Virus record (IMG/VR): IMGVR_UViG_2603880147_000004
Strand: one strand, 5' to 3'
From: a virus
Taxonomy: Duplodnaviria > Heunggongvirae > Uroviricota > Caudoviricetes
DNA length: 8,331 bases
The notes below the pieces were generated by a model. It was not told where the DNA came from, ran no database searches, and saw nothing but the letters and a program-made list of their open reading frames with translations. How positions within the stretch are numbered: position 1 is the first letter of the stretch; the number at the start of each line of letters is the position of its first letter. Both the position numbers and the translations under genes were made by a program. This document shows, in pieces, positions 1-8,331 of this stretch.

Positions 1-309
1 AGTGAAACCCGGTATGGATGTGGCTTCGGCCCCTTCCGTAAGAAAGTGCGCTTTGGTGATGGCTATTCCCAGCGAGCGCCTGCCGGGCTGAATGCCGACC
101 TGAAAACGTACAGCGTGACGCTTTCTGTTCCCCGTTGGGAGGCCACGGCGCTGGAGTCGTTTCTGGCTGAGCACGGGGGCTGGAAAGCCTTTCTGTGGAC
201 GCCGCCTTATGAGTGGCGGCAGATAAAGGTGACCTGCGCAAAATGGTCGTCGCGGGTCAGTATGCTGCGTGTTGAGTTCAGCGCAGAGTTTGAACAGGTG
301 GTGAACTGA
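1..309 (+). CDS. M: Tail tip protein M, 3' portion (5' end lies upstream of the window); reading frame appears to shift at an A-run near 40-45
   Basis: Frame 1 from 46 to stop TGA 307-309 translates to VRFGDGYSQRAPAGLNADLKTYSVTLSVPRWEATALESFLAEHGGWKAFLWTPPYEWRQIKVTCAKWSSRVSMLRVEFSAEFEQVVN, matching my recollection of the lambda gpM C-terminus. Bases 2-45 match gpM only in frame 2 (VKPGMDVASAPSVRK). Stop overlaps the L start (TGATG). Confidence 0.8.
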   Translation, partial: SETRYGCGFGPFRKKVRFGDGYSQRAPAGLNADLKTYSVTLSVPRWEATALESFLAEHGGWKAFLWTPPYEWRQIKVTCAKWSSRVSMLRVEFSAEFEQVVN

Positions 310-1007
310 TGCAGGATATCCGGCAGGAAACACTGAATGAATGCACCCGTGCGGAGCAGTCGGCCAGCGTGGTGCTCTGGGAAATCGATCTGACAGAGGT
401 CGGTGGAGAACGTTATTTTTTCTGTAATGAGCAGAACGAAAAAGGTGAGCCGGTCACCTGGCAGGGGCGACAGTATCAGCCGTATCCCATTCAGGGGAGT
501 GGTTTTGAACTGAATGGCAAAGGCACCAGTACGCGCCCCACGCTGACGGTTTCTAACCTGTACGGTATGGTCACCGGGATGGCGGAAGATCTGCAGAGTC
601 TGGTCGGCGGAACGGTGGTCCGGCGTAAGGTTTACGCCCGTTTTCTGGATGCGGTGAACTTCGTCAACGGAAACAGCGAAGCCGATCCGGAGCAGGAGGT
701 GATCAGCCGCTGGCGCATCGAGCAGTGCAGCGAACTGAGCGCGGTCAGTGTCTCTTTTGTACTGTCCACACCGACTGAAACGGATGGCTCTGTTTTTCCG
801 GGGCGTATCATGCTGGCCAACACCTGCACCTGGACCTATCGCGGCGATGAGTGCGGTTATAGCGGTCCGGCGGTCGCGGATGAATATGACCAGCCGACGT
901 CCGATATCACGAAGGATAAATGCAGCAAATGCCTGAGCGGCTGTAAGTTTCGCAATAACGTCGGCAACTTTGGCGGCTTCCTTTCCATTAACAAACTTTC
1001 GCAGTAA
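309..1007 (+). CDS. L: Tail tip assembly protein L (lambda gpL family)
   Basis: Intact 232-aa ORF, the same length as lambda gpL. ATG at 309 overlaps the M stop; SD-like AGGTGG at 296-301. Protein MQDIRQETLNECTRAEQSASVVLWEIDL...CSKCLSGCKFRNNVGNFGGFLSINKLSQ with a C-terminal cysteine cluster, consistent with the Fe-S cluster reported for gpL. Confidence 0.93.
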   Translation: MQDIRQETLNECTRAEQSASVVLWEIDLTEVGGERYFFCNEQNEKGEPVTWQGRQYQPYPIQGSGFELNGKGTSTRPTLTVSNLYGMVTGMAEDLQSLVGGTVVRRKVYARFLDAVNFVNGNSEADPEQEVISRWRIEQCSELSAVSVSFVLSTPTETDGSVFPGRIMLANTCTWTYRGDECGYSGPAVADEYDQPTSDITKDKCSKCLSGCKFRNNVGNFGGFLSINKLSQ

Positions 1008-1011
1008 TCCC

Positions 1012-1755
1012 ATGACACAGACAGAATCAGCGATTCTGGCGCACGCCCGGCGATGTGCGCCAGCGGAGTCGTGCGGCTTCGTGGTGAGAGCGCCGGAGGG
1101 GGAAAGATATTTTCCCTGCGTGAATATCTCCGGTGAGCCGGAGGCGTATTTCCGTATGTCGCCGGAAGACTGGCTGCAGGCAGAAATGCAGGGTGAGATT
1201 GTGGCGCTGGTCCACAGCCACCCCGGTGGTCTGCCCTGGCTGAGTGAGGCCGACAGGCGGCTGCAGGTGCAGAGTGATTTGCCGTGGTGGCTGGTCTGCC
1301 GGGGAGTGATTCATAAGTTCCGCTGTGTGCCGCATCTCACCGGGCGGCGTTTTGAGCACGGGGTGACAGACTGTTATACGCTGTTCCGCGATGCCTATCA
1401 TCTGGCGGGGATTGAGATGCCGGATTTTCATCGCGGGGATGACTGGTGGCGTCACGGTCAGAATCTCTATCTGGATAATCTGGAGGCCACAGGGCTGTAT
1501 CAGGTGCCGTTGTCAGCGGCACAGCCGGGCGATGTTCTGCTGTGCTGTTTTGGTTCATCGGTGCCGAATCACGCCGCCATTTACTGCGGCGACGGCGAGC
1601 TGCTGCACCATATTCCTGAACAACTGAGCAAACGAGAGAGGTATACCGACAAATGGCAGCGACGCACACACTCCCTCTGGCGTCACCAGGCATGGCACGC
1701 ATCTGCCTTTACGGGGATTTACAACGATTTGGCCGCCGCATCGACCTGCGTGTGA
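1012..1755 (+). CDS. K: Tail tip assembly protein K (lambda gpK family), two-domain JAMM/MPN + NlpC/P60
   Basis: Intact ORF. ATG at 1012 lies 4 nt after the L stop (MTQTESAILAHARRCAPAESCGFVV...). JAMM-type motif HSHPGGLPWLSEAD (HxH-x7-S-x2-D) with an upstream Glu (PAESCGF). NlpC/P60-like Cys (GVTDCYTLF) and His (NHAAIYCGDGELLHH) follow. Start is uncertain: the track offers TTG 970 inside L, and the classical lambda annotation uses the internal ATG at 1156. Confidence 0.88.
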   Translation: MTQTESAILAHARRCAPAESCGFVVRAPEGERYFPCVNISGEPEAYFRMSPEDWLQAEMQGEIVALVHSHPGGLPWLSEADRRLQVQSDLPWWLVCRGVIHKFRCVPHLTGRRFEHGVTDCYTLFRDAYHLAGIEMPDFHRGDDWWRHGQNLYLDNLEATGLYQVPLSAAQPGDVLLCCFGSSVPNHAAIYCGDGELLHHIPEQLSKRERYTDKWQRRTHSLWRHQAWHASAFTGIYNDLAAASTCV

Positions 1756-2324
1756 AAACGGGGGCCGAAGCCATCCGCGCACTGGCCACACAGCTCCCGG
1801 CGTTTCGTCAGAAACTGAGCGACGGCTGGTATCAGGTACGGATTGCCGGGCGGGACGTCAGCACGTCCGGGTTAACGGCGTAGTTACATGAGACTCTGCC
1901 TGACGGCGCTGTGATTCATATTGTTCCCAGAGTCGCCGGGGCCAAGTCAGGGGGCGTATTCCAGATTGTTCTGGGGGCTGCCGCCATTGCCGGATCATTC
2001 TTTACTGCCGGAGCCACTCTTGCAGCATGGGGGGCAGCCATTGGGGCCGGTGGTATGACCGGTATCCTGTTTTCTCTCGGTGCCAGTATGGTACTTGGTG
2101 GTGTGGCGCAGATGCTGGCACCGAAAGCCAGGACGCCCACGGCAGCAAGTACAGATAACGGCAAACAGAACACCTATTTCTCCTCACTGGATAACATGGT
2201 TGCCCAGGGCAATGTTCTGCCCGTTCTGTACGGTGAAATGCGCGTGGGGTCGCGGGTGGTCTCTCAGGAGATCAGCACGGCAGACGAAGGGGATGGTGGT
2301 CAGGTTGTGGTGATTGGTCGCTGA
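1653..2324 (+). pseudogene. I: Tail tip assembly protein I (lambda gpI family), interrupted by an in-frame TAG at 1881-1883
   Basis: ATG at 1653 overlaps the K 3' end by 103 nt in another frame, as in lambda. The frame is open for 76 codons (MAATHTLPLASPGMARICLYGDLQRFGRRIDLRVKTGAEAIRALATQLPAFRQKLSDGWYQVRIAGRDVSTSGLTA), then TAG, then the same frame continues with no further stop to TGA 2322-2324 (LHETLPDGAVIHIVPRVAGAKSGGVFQIVLGAAAIAGSFF...GGQVVVIGR). Total length 672 bp equals a 223-aa gpI plus stop. In lambda the position is Gln (CAG) as I recall. Confidence 0.85.
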
Positions 2325-2342
2325 TGAAAAACATTTTATGTG

Positions 2343-2370
2343 AAACCGCCTCCGGGCGGTTTTATCGTTT
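2343..2370 (+). terminator. GC-rich hairpin followed by a T-rich tract in the I-J intergenic spacer (terminator-like or RNA processing/stability element)
   Basis: AAACCGCC (2343-2350), loop TCCG, GGCGGTTT (2355-2362), then TTTTATCGTTT. Sits between the I stop (2324) and the J start (2385). Confidence 0.4.
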
Positions 2371-2384
2371 ATGGAGCATGACGA

Positions 2385-5300
2385 ATGGGTAAAGGCAGCA
2401 GTAAGGGGCATACCCCGCGCGAAGCGAAGGACAACCTGAAATCACCCAGATGCTGAGCGTGATAGACGCCATCAGCGAAGGGCCGATTGAAGGTCCGGTG
2501 GACGGATTAAAAAGCGTGCTGCTGAACAGTACGCCGGTGCTGGACAGTGAGGGGAATACCAATATCTCCGGCGTCACGGTGGTGTTCCGGGCAGGTGAGC
2601 AGGAGCAGACACCGCCGGAGGGATTTGAATCCTCCGGCTCCGAGACGGTGCTGGGTACGGAAGTGAAATACGACACGCCGATTACCCGGACCATCACGTC
2701 GGCAAACATCGACCGTCTGCGCTTTACCTTCGGTGTGCAGGCACTGGTGGAAACCACCTCAAAGGGGGACCGGAATCCGTCGGAAGTCCGCCTGCTGGTT
2801 CAGATACAGCGTAACGGTGGCTGGGTGACGGAAAAAGACATCACCATTAAAGGCAAAACCACCTCACAGTATCTGGCATCGGTGGTGGTGGATAACCTGC
2901 CGCCGCGCCCGTTCAATATCCGGATGCGCAGGATGACGCCGGACAGCACCACAGACCAGCTGCAGAACAAAACGCTCTGGTCGTCATACACCGAAATCAT
3001 CGATGTGAAACAGTGCTACCCGAACACGGCACTGGTCGGCGTACAGGTGGATTCGGAGCAGTTCGGCAGCCAGCAGGTGAGCCGTAATTATCATCTGCGC
3101 GGGCGTATTCTGCAGGTGCCGTCGAACTATAACCCGCAGACGCGGCAATACAGCGGTATCTGGGACGGAACGTTTAAACCAGCATACAGCAACAACATGG
3201 CCTGGTGTCTGTGGGATATGCTGACCCACCCACGCTACGGCATGGGGAAACGTCTTGGTGCGGCAGATGTGGACAAATGGGCGCTGTATGTCATCGGCCA
3301 GAACTGCGACCAGTCAGTGCCGGACAGCTTTGGCGGCACGGAGCCGCGCATCACCTGTAATGCGTACCTGACCACACAACGCAAGGCCTGGGATGTGCTC
3401 AGTGATTTCTGCTCGGCGATGCGCTGTATGCCGGTATGGAACGGGCAGACGCTGACGTTCGTGCAGGACCGACCGTCGGATAAGGTGTGGACCTATAACC
3501 GCAGTAATGTGGTGATGCCGGATGATGGCGCGCCGTTCCGCTACAGCTTCAGCGCCCTGAAGGACCGCCATAATGCCGTTGAGGTGAACTGGATTGACCC
3601 GAACAACGGCTGGGAGACGGCGACAGAGCTTGTTGAAGATACGCAGGCCATTGCCCGTTACGGTCGTAATGTCACGAAGATGGATGCCTTTGGCTGTACC
3701 AGTCGGGGGCAGGCACACCGCGCCGGGCTGTGGCTGATTAAAACGGAACTGCTGGAAACGCAGACCGTGGACTTCAGCGTGGGTGCTGAAGGGCTTCGCC
3801 ATGTACCGGGCGATGTCATTGAAATCTGCGATGATGACTATGCCGGTATCAGCATCGGCGGGCGCGTGCTGGCGGTGAACAGCCAGACCCGGACGCTGAC
3901 GCTCGACCGTGAAATCACGCTGCTATCCTCCGGTACTACGCTGATAAGCCTGGTTGACGGAAGTGGCAATCCGGTCAGCGTGGAGGTCCAGTCCGTCACC
4001 GACGGCGTGAAGGTAAAAGTGAGCCGTGTTCCTGACGGCGTTGCAGAATACAGCGTGTGGGGGCTGAAGTTGCCGACGTTGCGCCAGCGCCTGTTCCGCT
4101 GTGTGAGTATCCGTGAGAACGATGACGGCACGTATGCCATCACCGCCGTGCAGCATGTACCGGAAAAAGAAGCCATCGTGGATAACGGGGCGCACTTTGA
4201 CGGCGACCAGAGCGGCACGGTGAATGGCGTTACGCCGCCAGCGGTGCAGCACCTGACCGCCGAAGTCACCGCAGACAGCGGGGAGTATCAGGTACTGGCC
4301 CGCTGGGACACGCCGAAGGTGGTGAAGGGCGTGAGCTTCCTGCTCCGTCTGACCGTAACAGCGGATGACGGCAGTGAGCGGCTGGTCAGCACGGCCCGGA
4401 CGACGGAAACCACATACCGCTTCAGGCAGCTGGCGCCAGGGAACTACAGGCTGACGGTCCGGGCGGTAAATGCGTGGGGACAGCAGGGCGATCCGGCGTT
4501 GGTATCGTTCCGGATTGCCGCCCCGGCAGCGCCGTCGCGGATTGAGCTGACGTCGGGCTATTTTCAGATAACTGCCACGCCGCATCTTGCGGTTTATGAT
4601 CCGACGGTACAGTTTGAGTTCTGGTTCTCGGAAAAGCGGATTGCGGATATCAGGCAGGTTGAAACCACAGCACGCTATCTTGGCACGGCGCTGTACTGGA
4701 TAGCCGCCAGTATCAATATCAGGCCGGGCCATGATTATTATTTTTACGTTCGCAGTGTGAACACCGTTGGCAAATCGGCATTCGTGGAGGCTGTTGGTCA
4801 GCCGAGTGATGATGCATCCGGCTATCTGGATTTTTTCAAAGGCGAGATAGGGAAAACCCATCTGGCTCAGGAGCTGTGGACGCAGATTGATAACGGTCAG
4901 CTTGCGCCTGACCTGGCTGAAATCAGGACGTCCATTACGGATGTCAGCAATGAAATCACGCAGACCGTCAATAAGAAACTGGAAGACCAGAGTGCGGCAA
5001 TTCAGCAGATACAGAAGGTTCAGGTTGATACAAATAATAACCTGAACAGCATGTGGGCTGTGAAGCTGCAGCAGATGCAGGACGGACGCCTTTATATCGC
5101 GGGTATTGGTGTCGGTATTGAGAACACCCCTGACGGCATGCAGAGTCAGGTGCTGCTGGCGGCGGACAGGATTGCGATGGTTAATCCTGCGAATGGCAAC
5201 ACAAAACCGATGTTTGTTGGTCAGGGCGATCAGATATTCATGAACGACGTGTTCCTGAAACGCCTGACGGCCCCCACCATTACCAGCGGTGGAAATCCAC

Positions 5301-5863
5301 CGGCATTTTCCCTGACACCGGACGGAAAGCTGACTGCTAAAAATGCGGATATCAGTGGCAGTGTGAATGCGAACTCCGGGACGCTCAACAACGTCACGAT
5401 TAATGAGAACTGTCAGATTAAGGGGAAACTGTCAGCCAATCAGATTGAAGGCGATATTGTCAAAACAGTGGGTAAGGCTTTCCCGCGGGACTCCCGGGCA
5501 CCGGAGCGGTGGCCATCAGGGACCATTACCGTCAGGATTTATGACGATCAGCCTTTTGACAGGCAAATTGTTATTCCAGCGGTGGCATTCTGCGGCGCTA
5601 AACATGAGCGGGAGAATAACGATATTTATTCGTCATGCCGCCTGATAGTGAAGAAAAATGGTGCTGAAATTTATAACCGTACCGCGCTGGATAATACGCT
5701 GATTTACAGTGGTGTTATTGATATGCCAGCTGGTCACGGCCACATGACGCTGGAGTTTTCGGTGTCAGCATGGCTGGTAAATGACTGGTATCCCACAGCA
5801 AGTATCAGCGATTTGCTGGTTGTGGTGATGAAGAAAGCCACCGCTGGCATCAGTATCAGCTGA
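2385..5863 (+). pseudogene. J: Tip attachment / host specificity protein J (central tail fibre), with a frameshift about 20 codons from the start; the long open frame is 2450-5863
   Basis: ATG at 2385 with GGAG at 2373-2376 encodes [20 protein letters not shown], the gpJ N-terminus as I recall it, and hits TGA at 2454-2456 after about 22 codons. The 1137-codon ORF 2450-5863 is in another frame, begins [32 protein letters not shown] (lambda gpJ residues about 23 onward) and has no SD before its ATG. This implies a net 1-bp deletion near 2440-2448. The rest is gpJ-like to about 4840, then divergent. Confidence 0.88.
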
Positions 5864-5881
5864 ATTTTATAACCCATATAC

Positions 5882-5909
5882 GGGCGCCAGAAATGGCGCC
5901 TTTTTTATT
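5882..5909 (+). terminator. Rho-independent terminator downstream of J
   Basis: Perfect palindromic stem GGCGCC (5883-5888), loop AGAAAT, GGCGCC (5895-5900), then TTTTTTATT, 19 nt after the J stop. Confidence 0.75.
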
Positions 5910-5930
5910 GCAGAAAAGCGAGAGGTAATT

Positions 5931-6530
5931 ATGCGTAAAGTTTGTGCAGCCATTTTGTCCGCAGCCATCTGTCTGGCCGTATCCGGTGCGCCTGCATGGG
6001 CGTCTGAGCAGCAGGCCACACTGAGCGCAGGGTATCTTCATGCCCGTACGAACGCTCCCGGCAGCGATAATCTGAACGGGATTAACGTGAAATACCGTTA
6101 TGAGTTTACGGACACGCTGGGGCTGATTACGTCATTCAGTTATGCCAACGCTGAAGATGAGCAAAAAACGCATTACAGCGATACCCGCTGGTATGAAGAT
6201 TCCGTGCGTAACCGCTGGTTCAGCGTGATGGCGGGGCCGTCTGTGCGCGTGAATGAATGGTTCAGCGCGTATGCGATGGTGGGTGTGGCTTACAGCCGTG
6301 TGTCGACTTTCTCCGGGAATTATCTGCAGGTGACCGACAATACGGGGAAAACGCACGATGTGCTGACCGGAAGTGATGACGGTCGCCACAGCAACACGTC
6401 TCTGGCGTGGGGGGCTGGCGTGCAGTTTAACCCGACCGAATCCGTGGCCGTTGATGTCGCTTATGAAGGCTCCGGCAGCGGTGACTGGCGTACCAACAGT
6501 TTCATCGTTGGTGTCGGTTATAAATTCTGA
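5931..6530 (+). CDS. lom: Lom-like outer membrane protein (Ail/Lom/PagC/OmpX 8-strand beta-barrel family), prophage moron
   Basis: 199-aa ORF with SD GAGAGG at 5920-5925 five nt before the ATG. Signal peptide [24 protein letters not shown] then SEQQ. C-terminus [22 protein letters not shown] ends in the aromatic residue typical of OMP barrels and closely matches the lambda Lom C-terminus as I recall it. Internal [12 protein letters not shown] and SVMAGP motifs are also shared. It sits between J and stf as in lambda. Confidence 0.9.
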
Positions 6531-6556
6531 TTAGCCAGGTAACACAGTGTTATGAC

Positions 6557-6583
6557 AGCCCGCCGGTTCAGGCGGGCTTTTTT
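6557..6583 (+). terminator. Rho-independent terminator downstream of lom
   Basis: Stem AGCCCGCC (6557-6564), loop GGTTCA, GGCGGGCT (6571-6578), then TTTTTTGTGG, 27 nt after the lom stop. Confidence 0.75.
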
Positions 6584-6594
6584 GTGGGGGGAAT

Positions 6595-8331
6595 ATGGCA
6601 GTACGGATTTCAGGTGTACTGAAAGATGGCGCAGGTAAGCCGATACAAAACTGCACCATTCAGCTAAAGGCCAGGCGCAACAGCACCACGGTGGTGGTGA
6701 ACACAGTGGCCTCAGAAAACCCGGATGAAGCCGGGCGTTACACAATGGACGTCGAGTATGGTCAGTACAGCGTCAGTCTGTTGGTGGAGGGATTCCCGCC
6801 GTCACACGCCGGGATTATCACCGTATATGAGGACTCAAAGCCGGGCACACTGAATGATTTCCTCGGTGCAATGACGGAGGATGATGTCCGGCCAGAGGCA
6901 CTGCGCCGTTTTGAACTGATGGTGGAAGAGGTGGCGCGTAACGCGTCCGCAGTGGCACAGAACACGGCAGCCGCGAAGAAGTCAGCCAGCGATGCCCGCA
7001 CCTCAGCCCGGGATGCGGCGGCCTCAAAAGAGGCAGCGAAATCATCAGAAACGAACGCATCATCAAGCGCCAGTAGTGCCGCTTCCTCGGCAACGGCGGC
7101 AGGAAATTCCGCGAAGGCGGCAAAGACGTCCGAGACGAACGCCAGGTCTTCTGAAACGGCAGCGGGACAGAGTGCCTCAGCTGCGGCAGGCTCAAAAACA
7201 GCGGCTGCATCATCAGCCAGTGCCGCGTCAACAAGTGCCGGGCAGGCCTCAGCCAGTGCCACCGCTGCCGGAAAGTCGGCAGAAAGTGCTGCATCGTCTG
7301 CTTCAACAGCCACAACGAATGCTGGCGAAGCCGCTGTACAGGCCAGCGCAGCAGCGAGGTCAGCTTCCGCAGCGAAGACATCCGAAACGAACGCGAAAGC
7401 GTCGGAAACCAGCGCAGAATCCTCAAAAACGGCTGCCGCATCGTCCGCCAGTTCGGCGGCGTCATCGGCATCATCTGCGTCTGCTTCAAAAGATGAGGCG
7501 ACCAGACAGGCGTCAGCAGCGAGGGGCAGCGCCACGACGGCATCCACGAAGGCGACAGAGGCTGCTGGCAGTGCGGCAGCGGCAGCACAGAGCAAAAGTA
7601 CGGCAGAATCCGCAGCAACGCGCGCTGAGACAGCGGCAAAACGTGCAGAGGATATTGCATCCGCCGTGGCGCTTGAGGATGCGAGCACGACGAAAAAGGG
7701 GGTAGTACAGCTCAGCAGTGCGACCAACAGCACTTCCGAGTCACAGGCGGCAACGCCAAAAGCCGTTAAGGCCGCGTATGACCTGGCTAACGGGAAATAC
7801 ACCGCACAGGATGCAACGACAGGACAGAAAGGGATAGTTCAGCTCAGCAGTGCGACTAACAGCACTTCCGAGTCACAGGCGGCAACGCCAAAAGCCGTTA
7901 AGGCCGCGTATGACCTGGCTAACGGGAAATACACCGCACAGGATGCAACGACAGGACAGAAAGGGATAGTTCAGCTCAGCAGTGCGACTAACAGCACTTC
8001 CGAGTCACAGGCGGCAACGCCAAAAGCCGTTAAGGCCGCGTATGACCTGGCTAACGGGAAATACACCGCACAGGACGCTACGACAGCACAAAAAGGAATT
8101 GTCCAGCTCAGTAGTGCAACCAACAGCACATCTGAAACGCTTGCTGCGACACCGAAAGCAGTGAAAGCAGCTAATGACAATGCGAATGGTCGGGTACCTT
8201 CTGCCCGTAAGGTGAATGGTAAGGCGCTTTCAGCGGATATAACACTGACGCCGAAAGATATCGGTACGCTTAACTCAACAACAATGTCATTCAGCGGTGG
8301 TGCTGGTTGGTTCAAATTAGCAACGGTAACC
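6595..8331 (+). CDS. stf: Side tail fibre protein Stf, 5' partial (open to the window end, 579 codons, no stop)
   Basis: I translated frame 1 by hand from ATG 6595 to 8331 and found no stop. The ORF track omits it, presumably because it has no stop in the window. N-terminus MAVRISGVLKDGAGKPIQNCTIQLKARRNSTTVVVNTVASENPDEAGRYTMDVEYGQYSVSLLVEGFPPSHAGIITVYEDSKPGTLNDFL resembles lambda Stf as I recall it. An Ala/Ser/Thr-rich low-complexity region follows, then repeated KGIVQLSSATNSTSE..AATPKAVK tail-fibre motifs. G-rich SD-like run at 6585-6590. Confidence 0.9.
   Translation, partial: MAVRISGVLKDGAGKPIQNCTIQLKARRNSTTVVVNTVASENPDEAGRYTMDVEYGQYSVSLLVEGFPPSHAGIITVYEDSKPGTLNDFLGAMTEDDVRPEALRRFELMVEEVARNASAVAQNTAAAKKSASDARTSARDAAASKEAAKSSETNASSSASSAASSATAAGNSAKAAKTSETNARSSETAAGQSASAAAGSKTAAASSASAASTSAGQASASATAAGKSAESAASSASTATTNAGEAAVQASAAARSASAAKTSETNAKASETSAESSKTAAASSASSAASSASSASASKDEATRQASAARGSATTASTKATEAAGSAAAAAQSKSTAESAATRAETAAKRAEDIASAVALEDASTTKKGVVQLSSATNSTSESQAATPKAVKAAYDLANGKYTAQDATTGQKGIVQLSSATNSTSESQAATPKAVKAAYDLANGKYTAQDATTGQKGIVQLSSATNSTSESQAATPKAVKAAYDLANGKYTAQDATTAQKGIVQLSSATNSTSETLAATPKAVKAANDNANGRVPSARKVNGKALSADITLTPKDIGTLNSTTMSFSGGAGWFKLATVT
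7699..8193 (+). repeat. In-frame tandem repeat inside stf: three 132-bp (44-codon) units plus a degenerate partial fourth
   Basis: Units 7699-7830, 7831-7962 and 7963-8094 are almost identical at the nucleotide level. Units 2 and 3 differ only in their last ~24 nt; unit 1 differs at a few positions near its 5' end. Each encodes G(V/I)VQLSSATNSTSESQAATPKAVKAAYDLANGKYTAQDATT(G/A)QK. A diverged copy follows at 8095 to about 8193 (GIVQLSSATNSTSETLAATPKAVKAANDNANGR). Confidence 0.9.

Follow-up and report, generated by a model that had tools for sequence, protein, structure and literature searches.

Mosaic distal gene J of a lambdoid element: a common recombinant allele, most likely carried by a decaying prophage

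Which parts of the tip attachment protein J differ from those of lambda in a lambdoid element, how did these parts come together, and what would the resulting protein recognise? The questions are raised by a stretch of DNA of 8,331 nucleotides (IMG/VR record IMGVR_UViG_2603880147_000004, Caudoviricetes), the whole of which is referred to here as the window. An earlier note, made from the letters of the window without database searches, had described the distal third of J as mosaic, with a different receptor-binding end and a lower GC content. Our analysis makes it highly probable that positions 4792–5863 are the distal part of a lambdoid J with its domains in the standard order and that they represent a recombinant and common allele, the carrier of which is most likely a decaying prophage. 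The features on which the argument turns are as follows.

1881–1883, + strand: gene I, a tail gene that precedes J, with Q77 changed to an in-frame TAG (amber), found by comparing the translation with lambda I.
2385–5863, + strand: gene J, encoding the tip attachment protein or central tail fibre, defined by three-frame translation, alignment with lambda, phage 21 and E. coli 1297KP, and synteny.
2450–4791, + strand: lambda-like J body (hub domains plus FNIII/Ig domains), defined by nucleotide identity to lambda and by the Pfam families FNIII-A_GpJ, Phage-tail_3, Ig_J and Ig_J_second.
4792–5230, + strand: first divergent segment, comprising the alpha-helical shaft with the uppermost part of the beta-prism, defined by nucleotide identities (domain names from PMC11101478).
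5231–5387, + strand: conserved island, the beta-sheet prism (central straight fibre), defined by nucleotide identity to lambda.
5388–5863, + strand: Ig-like receptor-binding domain (RBD) of 158 aa, ending at 5860, plus the stop codon (Pfam Ig_GpJ_C, 128 bits).
5882–5901, + strand: terminator-like hairpin with a T-run directly after J, from a consensus scan only.

Gene J and its identity to lambda

The gene order in the window is M-L-K-I-J followed by lom and stf, which matches the annotated order in lambda, E. coli 1297KP, PhiR55_1 and 434. The gpJ set of Pfam families is complete and in the canonical order, Phage_Tail_Tip and Ig_GpJ_C following the four families of the J body, and all six score 109–147 bits against cut-offs of 22–29. 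A phmmer search of the PDB returned A8 gpJ713 (9wca; E = 2e-123) and lambda gpJ (8xcj; E = 3e-101). Domain set, gene position and homology of sequence and fold thus all identify a lambda-type tip attachment protein J. By analogy with the gpJ mechanism described in PMC11101478, the protein would trimerise at the tail tip, where receptor binding would trigger DNA ejection. Downstream of the gene, the hairpin at 5882–5901 occupies a position equivalent to that of an annotated terminator in phage 21.

J is not open without interruption from its canonical start, the ATG at 2385: a 1-nt deletion near 2442 breaks the frame at codon 21. Three-frame translation shows the leader ORF ending early at the TGA at 2454–2456. 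The long J ORF (2450–5863, 1137 aa) begins at an internal ATG at 2450, without the first 21 residues, and the 1137 codons that follow this ATG are free of stops. The frameshift had been missed in the earlier note, and the 1137-aa ORF is not the full J gene.

Comparison with lambda J by segment gave nucleotide identities of 95.4% for 2450–4791, 55.8% for 4792–5230, 96.2% for 5231–5387 and 59.8–62.2% (about 61%) for 5388–5863. Identity to lambda is thus not uniform along J; chance does not come near to accounting for any of the three steps (Fisher p = 7e-96, 2e-24 and 7e-20), and the island is as lambda-like as the proximal part of the gene (p = 0.84). The protein is 95–100% identical to lambda gpJ up to residue ~760 and 88–90% identical for residues 761–800. 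Identity is only 15–55% for residues 801–920, where there is a net insertion of 28 residues, returns to 95% for 921–960 and is 30–60% over the last ~150 residues. The earlier description of a protein that tracks lambda to about position 4840, and is then divergent, conserved and divergent again, was therefore borne out close to the positions it gave. The peptides it quoted are all present, with PMFV starting at 5207 and NANSGTL ending at 5386.

The divergent segments had also been described as AT-richer than the rest of J. The distal third is indeed AT-richer (GC 0.506 for 4844–5860 versus 0.598 for 2450–4549), but the drop begins upstream of the swapped sequence. There is a single significant GC change point in J, at ~4559 (support interval 4527–4734), where GC falls from 0.60 to 0.50. 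This is ~290 nt upstream of the identity break and inside lambda-like sequence (GC 0.507 for 4550–4843), and the breakpoints expected near 4840, 5207 and 5390 do not exist. The GC of the conserved island (0.538, n = 186) did not differ significantly from that of its flanks. Lambda's own J has a corresponding fall in GC at codon 726, from 0.593 to 0.532. As the change point lies upstream of the identity break and is common to lambda J, the low GC is no evidence for a swap, and GC was rejected as a marker of swapped modules.

Discordant segments and the origin of the mosaic

The shaft segment, so different from that of lambda, is equally distant from that of 434 (56.3% nucleotide identity) and has 96–99% identity to those of phage 21, PhiR55_1 and 640R1. 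The distance from DFFKG to PMFV is 121 aa in the window, the long allele, versus 93 aa in lambda and 434; compared with the lambda shaft, that of the window is 28 residues longer and 34% identical. The Pfam family Phage_Tail_Tip covers aa 850–978. The same long shaft, with the same lom and stf neighbours, is present in the prophages of E. coli 1297KP, ECamp52 and ATCC 8739, in PhiR55_1 and in vB_EcoS-640R1. In all of these J is intact (1159 aa), in contrast to the window J with its 1-nt deletion at codon 21. E. coli 1297KP (WP_488914624.1) differs from the window by one SNP in 4792–5863 and by three SNPs in 3500–7700, the J-lom-stf stretch being nearly identical.

Read as protein, the island extends from PMFV to NANSGTL (5207–5386) and is 90–100% identical across all the J types compared. 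Its nucleotide identity is 84–89% to phage 21, PhiR55_1 and 640R1 versus the much higher value for lambda, PhiR55_1 and 640R1 (87–89%) carrying a different island allele.

Across nine J genes, the segment identities were discordant. Lambda (NP_040600; PDB 8iyk and 8xcj) has the same architecture and gene neighbourhood as the window J and 95% nucleotide identity in the first 2.3 kb and the prism. Phage 434 likewise combines a lambda-like body and the conserved island with a lambda-type short shaft; the two phages are 95–96% identical to the window in the J body and 56% identical in the shaft. Phage 21 J (OL657228) has the same long shaft allele (96.4% for 4792–5230) and the same gene start including Met22, while its RBD core has only 63.5% nucleotide identity. 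The reverse is seen in JLK-2012, with 68% in the shaft and 94% in the RBD core, on a different J body. The specificity region of the window J, its C-terminal ~170 residues, therefore behaves as a module. A survey of 1,207 J homologues had found residues 960–1132 to be an independently recombining module (PMC6646904, Maddamsetti et al. 2018), and modular exchange of the distal part of J is thus already documented.

Since its segments are common to other phages in discordant combinations, an origin of the distal J mosaic by recombination is well supported. This part of the earlier proposal, that the element acquired the module by recombination, holds as regards an exchange in either direction; the window alleles are common in E. 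coli and the lambda RBD is rare. An assembly chimera is ruled out, the same junctions being present in several complete genomes. Although fast evolution of RBD sites is seen in natural as well as laboratory settings (PMC6646904, PMC11336670), a recombination-free origin, in which point mutations accumulated in situ at an accelerated rate under diversifying selection, is scarcely credible given the sharp identity steps with a 96% island in between, the 28-residue change in shaft length and the occurrence of the same segments, 94–100% identical, on divergent J backbones beside different neighbours.

The window J combines a phage 21-like long shaft, a lambda-type prism and an RBD as in PhiR55_1 and O157 prophages, a combination that most probably goes back to homologous recombination between different lambdoid phages and prophages. 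The conserved prism is probably the homologous crossover zone between shaft and RBD. In the corresponding stretch lies the fusion point, lambda residue 964, of engineered gpJ chimeras (PMC11338833), and distal J exchange has been put to use for retargeting lambda particles (PMC11338833). The short lambda form of the shaft in the A8 gpJ chimera is a consequence of its engineered fusion at this residue.

The receptor-binding domain and its candidate receptors

The window RBD is a separate RBD type. Its protein sequence recurs unchanged (100% identity) in E. coli 1297KP and ECamp52 and is 92–95% identical in PhiR55_1 (95%), JLK-2012 and VT1-Sakai. Identity is 65% to phage 21, 64% to A8 gpJ (PDB 9wca; sequence rebuilt from the PDB alignment), 46% to 434, which has extra loop insertions, and 45% to lambda, where the RBD core has about 62% nucleotide identity.

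A8 gpJ (9wca, closed; 9wcb, open) is the best PDB match, with the same fold and domain order. The first 28 residues of its RBD are identical to those of the window and the last ~22 nearly so, giving a common framework; the differences, including indels, are mainly at four hotspots. Measured against A8 and lambda, divergence is greatest in the lambda-numbered intervals 1004–1019, 1038–1055, 1062–1084 and 1091–1108, and the published indel hotspots of the J specificity region are at lambda residues 1012, 1048, 1077 and 1107 (PMC6646904). An AlphaFold2 monomer model of prism and RBD was of mediocre quality (mean pLDDT 59.8), and the loops were accordingly placed by sequence alignment and not in three dimensions. 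When this modest model was used in Foldseek, the best matches were 9wca, 8xck, 8xcj and 9wcb (E = 8e-20 to 9e-16).

A literature search covering PhiR55_1, PhiR46_1, 640R1, PPompW and VT1-Sakai gave no experimental receptor for this RBD type. The nearest characterised relatives are split between OmpC (A8) and LamB (phage 21), and any receptor call is therefore a guess, for which the sequence comparisons make OmpC the best candidate and LamB the main alternative.

Recognition of OmpC by the RBD, perhaps restricted to some OmpC variants, would fit the earlier suggestion of a receptor other than LamB, and we favour it tentatively, at somewhat less than an even chance. A8 gpJ, the nearest solved structure, binds OmpC (PMC11338833), 9wcb being its open state with OmpC of E. 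coli EDL933. A second binder, 1A2, which derives from natural E. coli, is specific for EDL933 OmpC, and the window RBD type occurs widely in prophages of STEC, O157 included. However, the differences from A8 are concentrated at exactly those four loop and indel hotspots that have been tied to specificity (PMC6646904), and phage 21, which is equally close, is a LamB user (PMC11336670). Phage 434 is also an OmpC binder. Another OmpC binder, phi330, was set aside as it belongs to a different genus.

Continued recognition of LamB, with the divergence reflecting arms-race tuning and not a change of receptor, appears rather unlikely. The window RBD does not have close identity to that of lambda, loops L1–L4 included, and the putative contact loops are heavily changed. 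However, the RBD of phage 21 is itself only 46% identical to that of lambda while LamB is its native receptor, OmpC being added by a single mutation (PMC11336670); 45% identity thus does not exclude the use of LamB. In addition, of the four indel hotspots, three (near 1012, 1048 and 1077) have in the window RBD the length found in lambda, whereas indels occur there in phage 21 and A8. It is less probable still that the RBD binds some outer-membrane protein apart from LamB, OmpC and OmpF, or that the longer shaft alters the transmission from binding to opening.

By analogy with the solved lambda and A8 gpJ, the J trimer would dock on a trimeric porin of the outer membrane, with four RBD loops entering the porin's mouth. 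Following contact, the RBDs would spread, the prism would twist, the shaft would flip and refold, and the tail tip would open (domain map and opening mechanism in PMC11101478).

Integrity of the tail genes and abundance of the allele

As well as the frameshift in J, the tail module carries the amber codon in gene I, a gene likewise annotated with an ‘internal stop’ in E. coli 1297KP. Two 1-nt deletions, in M (position 45) and J (position 2442), are not found in the nearest relatives. With J frameshifted and I interrupted, the module most likely lies in a decaying prophage, and the element as sequenced may target nothing.

It is doubtful, though a real possibility, that the deletions in M and J stem from faulty sequencing or assembly and that the J of the prophage is intact and functional. 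Both are single-base deletions, both are missing from 1297KP, whose other differences are all SNPs, and the remainder of J is open. The amber codon in I is in contrast a substitution and not an indel, and as it is also present in another complete genome, the tail module is damaged in any case. A 41-mer spanning the frameshift had no exact match in genome contigs representing one genome per species, a search which is uninformative. For annotation, the point is that J and the neighbouring I are disrupted in the window. A J module in a decaying prophage could still serve as a donor in recombination.

The allele is not new, being already present in public genomes such as that of E. coli 1297KP. 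At identities of at least 90%, the RBD matched about 3,300 complete E. coli records; the long shaft, at identities of at least 95%, also matched about 3,300 E. coli records. Lambda RBD DNA was present in 98 of 5,426 complete E. coli genomes, and among the matches listed most were laboratory strains. The window J allele is therefore one of the commonest in E. coli and the lambda RBD is rare: the LamB-binding end of lambda is a rarity in natural E. coli prophages, among which the type found in the window dominates.

Stepwise identity along J

The window (8.3 kb) corresponds to the tail-tip end of a lambdoid prophage, in the gene order M (3′ part), L, K, I, J, a lom-type gene and stf (start). Positions 1–4880 are 95.1% identical to lambda. 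The nearest complete genome, that of Escherichia coli 1297KP, is 98.8% identical across the full window, with 3 SNPs from ∼3500 to 7700; in this genome tfaQ, pinQ and ydfK adjoin the element.

The long J ORF (2450–5863) codes for 1137 amino acids with 83% overall identity to the lambda tail-tip attachment protein gpJ. Identity along the gene is stepwise. Protein identity is 95–100% up to residue ∼760, 88–90% at residues 761–800, 15–55% at 801–920, 95% at 921–960 and 30–60% over the last ∼150 residues.

Nucleotide identity of J segments to lambda (RBD, Ig-like receptor-binding domain)
2450–4791, body: 95.4%
4792–5230, shaft segment: 55.8%
5231–5387, conserved island: 96.2%
5388–5479, start of RBD: 59.8%
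5480–5863, RBD core: 62.2%

The successive steps gave Fisher p values of 7e-96, 2e-24 and 7e-20, and the similarity of the island to lambda was indistinguishable from that of proximal J (p = 0.84). The last 30-nt block fully identical to lambda J is at 4760–4789, so the first junction lies between ∼4790 and ∼4850, where the earlier note had placed it. As protein, the island runs from PMFV (start at 5207) to NANSGTL (end at 5386). The description in that note of a J that tracks lambda, diverges, re-converges and diverges again is thus borne out almost to the base by the segment identities.

In the cryo-EM structure of lambda gpJ, the order is hub domains, FNIII-1, FNIII-2, alpha-helical shaft (residues 809–861), beta-sheet prism (the central straight fibre) and Ig-like RBD, which has four receptor-contact loops (PMC11101478). 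In window J, Pfam places Phage_Tail_Tip at residues 850–978 and Ig_GpJ_C, the C-terminal receptor-binding domain, at 1007–1137; the four proximal gpJ domains are present too, all far above cut-offs. Taken with the lambda order, this placement identifies the first divergent segment as the shaft and prism top; the island is the prism and the final divergent segment is the RBD. The spacing from DFFKG to PMFV is 121 amino acids compared with 93 in lambda, and the 28 extra residues are located in the helical part of the shaft segment.

Base composition and recombination

The divergent segments had also been described as AT-richer than the rest of J. This holds for the distal third as a whole, where GC is 0.506 (4844–5860) compared with 0.598 for 2450–4549, but GC does not track the swapped segments. 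The sole significant GC change point within J is at ∼4559 (support interval 4527–4734), ∼290 nt before the drop in identity, where the sequence is still 93–94% lambda-like; the GC of 4550–4843 is 0.507. GC in the island (0.538, n = 186) and in the flanking segments (0.512 and 0.489) does not differ significantly. In lambda J, GC falls from 0.593 to 0.532 at codon 726, the drop being slightly stronger in window J. Since the change point lies inside lambda-like sequence and lambda J shows the same fall, low GC is a general trait of the distal part of J genes, and we reject it as a footprint of swapped segments.

Nine J genes were compared segment by segment.

Identity to window J (body; shaft segment; RBD core; RBD protein)
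Phage 21: 96.1%; 96.4%; 63.5%; 65%
JLK-2012: 74.6%; 68%; 94%; 93%
VT1-Sakai: 77.7%; 92%; 92%; 92%
Lambda: 95.4%; 55.8%; 62.2%; 45%
434: 96.2%; 56.3%; 60.9%; 46%

The RBD proteins of lambda and 434 are 38% identical to each other. The island is itself patchy, that of the window matching the lambda type (96.2%) and not the type of PhiR55_1, phage 21 and 640R1 (84–89%). Within the RBD, the first 28 residues are identical to those of A8 gpJ (a chimera fused at lambda residue 964), and the core matches the PhiR55_1 type. This discordant sharing makes distal J a mosaic built from four or more pieces of 100–450 bp each. Divergence in place cannot give such discordance among the nine genes and is rejected; that the module was gained by recombination, as the earlier note proposed, is a sound inference. 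Exchange may have run in either direction. Among natural E. coli prophages it is lambda, not the window allele, that is unusual.

The discordance agrees with a survey of 1,207 J homologues (Maddamsetti et al. 2018), which concluded that residues 960–1132 circulate independently as a module, lineages being defined by indels at 1012, 1048–1049, 1077–1078 and 1107 (PMC6646904). The chimera fusion point at residue 964 was placed in the conserved stretch before the RBD (PMC11338833).

Alleles among 5,426 complete E. coli genomes
Window RBD DNA: 3,293 records at at least 90% identity; 3,365 genomes with at least 80% of the query covered
Window long shaft: 3,323 records at at least 95%
Lambda RBD (5425–5904 of L001, lambda NC_001416): 98 genomes, all at at least 99%
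Lambda short shaft: ∼2,600 genomes

Among the matches listed at the top, the lambda RBD carriers are laboratory and DE3 strains. The window RBD type occurs in 56 records of sequenced phages (90–95% protein identity), including PhiR55_1, 2G7b, JLK-2012, O157 PPompW prophages and several Stx2a phages. Both distal J mosaicism and the exact window allele are already known.

Predicted receptor

The earlier note considered a different receptor probable. Strong divergence from the lambda RBD, alone, is no predictor of a new receptor. The phage 21 RBD is 46% identical to that of lambda; its native receptor is LamB, one J mutation gives OmpC use and more mutations add OmpF (PMC11336670).

The top PDB match of window J, ahead of lambda gpJ, was 'A8 gpJ 713' (9wca, the closed state; E = 2e-123). 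A predicted prism and RBD model (mean pLDDT 59.8; RBD core ∼75–87) had 9wca, 8xck, 8xcj and 9wcb as its four best structure matches, 9wcb showing the open conformation with OmpC from E. coli EDL933 bound. A8, a gpJ C-terminus that occurs naturally in E. coli, retargets lambda to OmpC (PMC11338833). At the protein level, the window RBD shares 64% identity with A8 and 65% with phage 21. Between A8 and the window RBD, framework and both ends are conserved and differences cluster at lambda-numbered residues 1004–1019, 1038–1055, 1062–1084 and 1091–1108, which are the four published specificity hotspots. Our reading is that the window RBD would bind a trimeric porin as its relatives do, but that its specificity would be distinct. 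The likeliest receptor is tentatively predicted to be OmpC, with LamB as the second, less likely candidate. A literature search for phages carrying this RBD type found no direct receptor data.

Neighbouring genes and state of the tail module

The K protein (window 1012–1160 compared with L001 14127–14280) has 247 amino acids in the window and other lambdoid prophages; the 1297KP annotation calls it a C40 family peptidase. Relative to this longer K, NC_001416 is without one base at ∼14266, which puts the first ∼45 residues in a different frame; lambda K is annotated as 199 amino acids. The lom-type gene (5931–6530; Ail_Lom family, 408 bits), whose product is 43% identical to lambda Lom compared with 86% to the phage 434 Ail/PagC/OmpX-type protein, is a further swapped cassette immediately 3′ of J. 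In stf (side tail fibre), 7699–8129 holds 3.3 tandem copies (95% matches) of a 132-nt unit coding for the Phage_fiber_2 repeat; the region is ∼130 nt longer than in 1297KP, so copy number is variable.

Terminator-like GC hairpins with T-runs (consensus scan matches only)
5882–5901, after J
6557–6578, after the lom-type gene

The canonical start codon of J is the ATG at 2385. One base is missing near 2442 (phage 21 TCATCCCAG and lambda TCCACGCAG compared with TCACCCAG in the window), producing a stop at 2454–2456. The long ORF starts at the internal ATG 2450, the counterpart of Met22 in phage 21 J. As this ATG overlaps the stop (ATGCTGA), re-initiation giving J without its first 21 residues is conceivable. 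Compared with lambda and 1297KP, gene M lacks 1 nt at position 45, which shifts its frame near the 5′ end. The M and J indels are absent from 1297KP and could be sequencing errors rather than true lesions. Gene I has an in-frame amber TAG at 1881–1883 (Gln77). This change is no indel, and 1297KP carries it too, flagged there by the NCBI annotation pipeline as an 'internal stop'; the gene is intact in ECamp52 (an E. coli J carrier with a 100% identical RBD), lambda and the PhiR phages. A defective tail module is probable, and the distal J module would then matter chiefly as a source of DNA with which incoming lambdoid phages could recombine.
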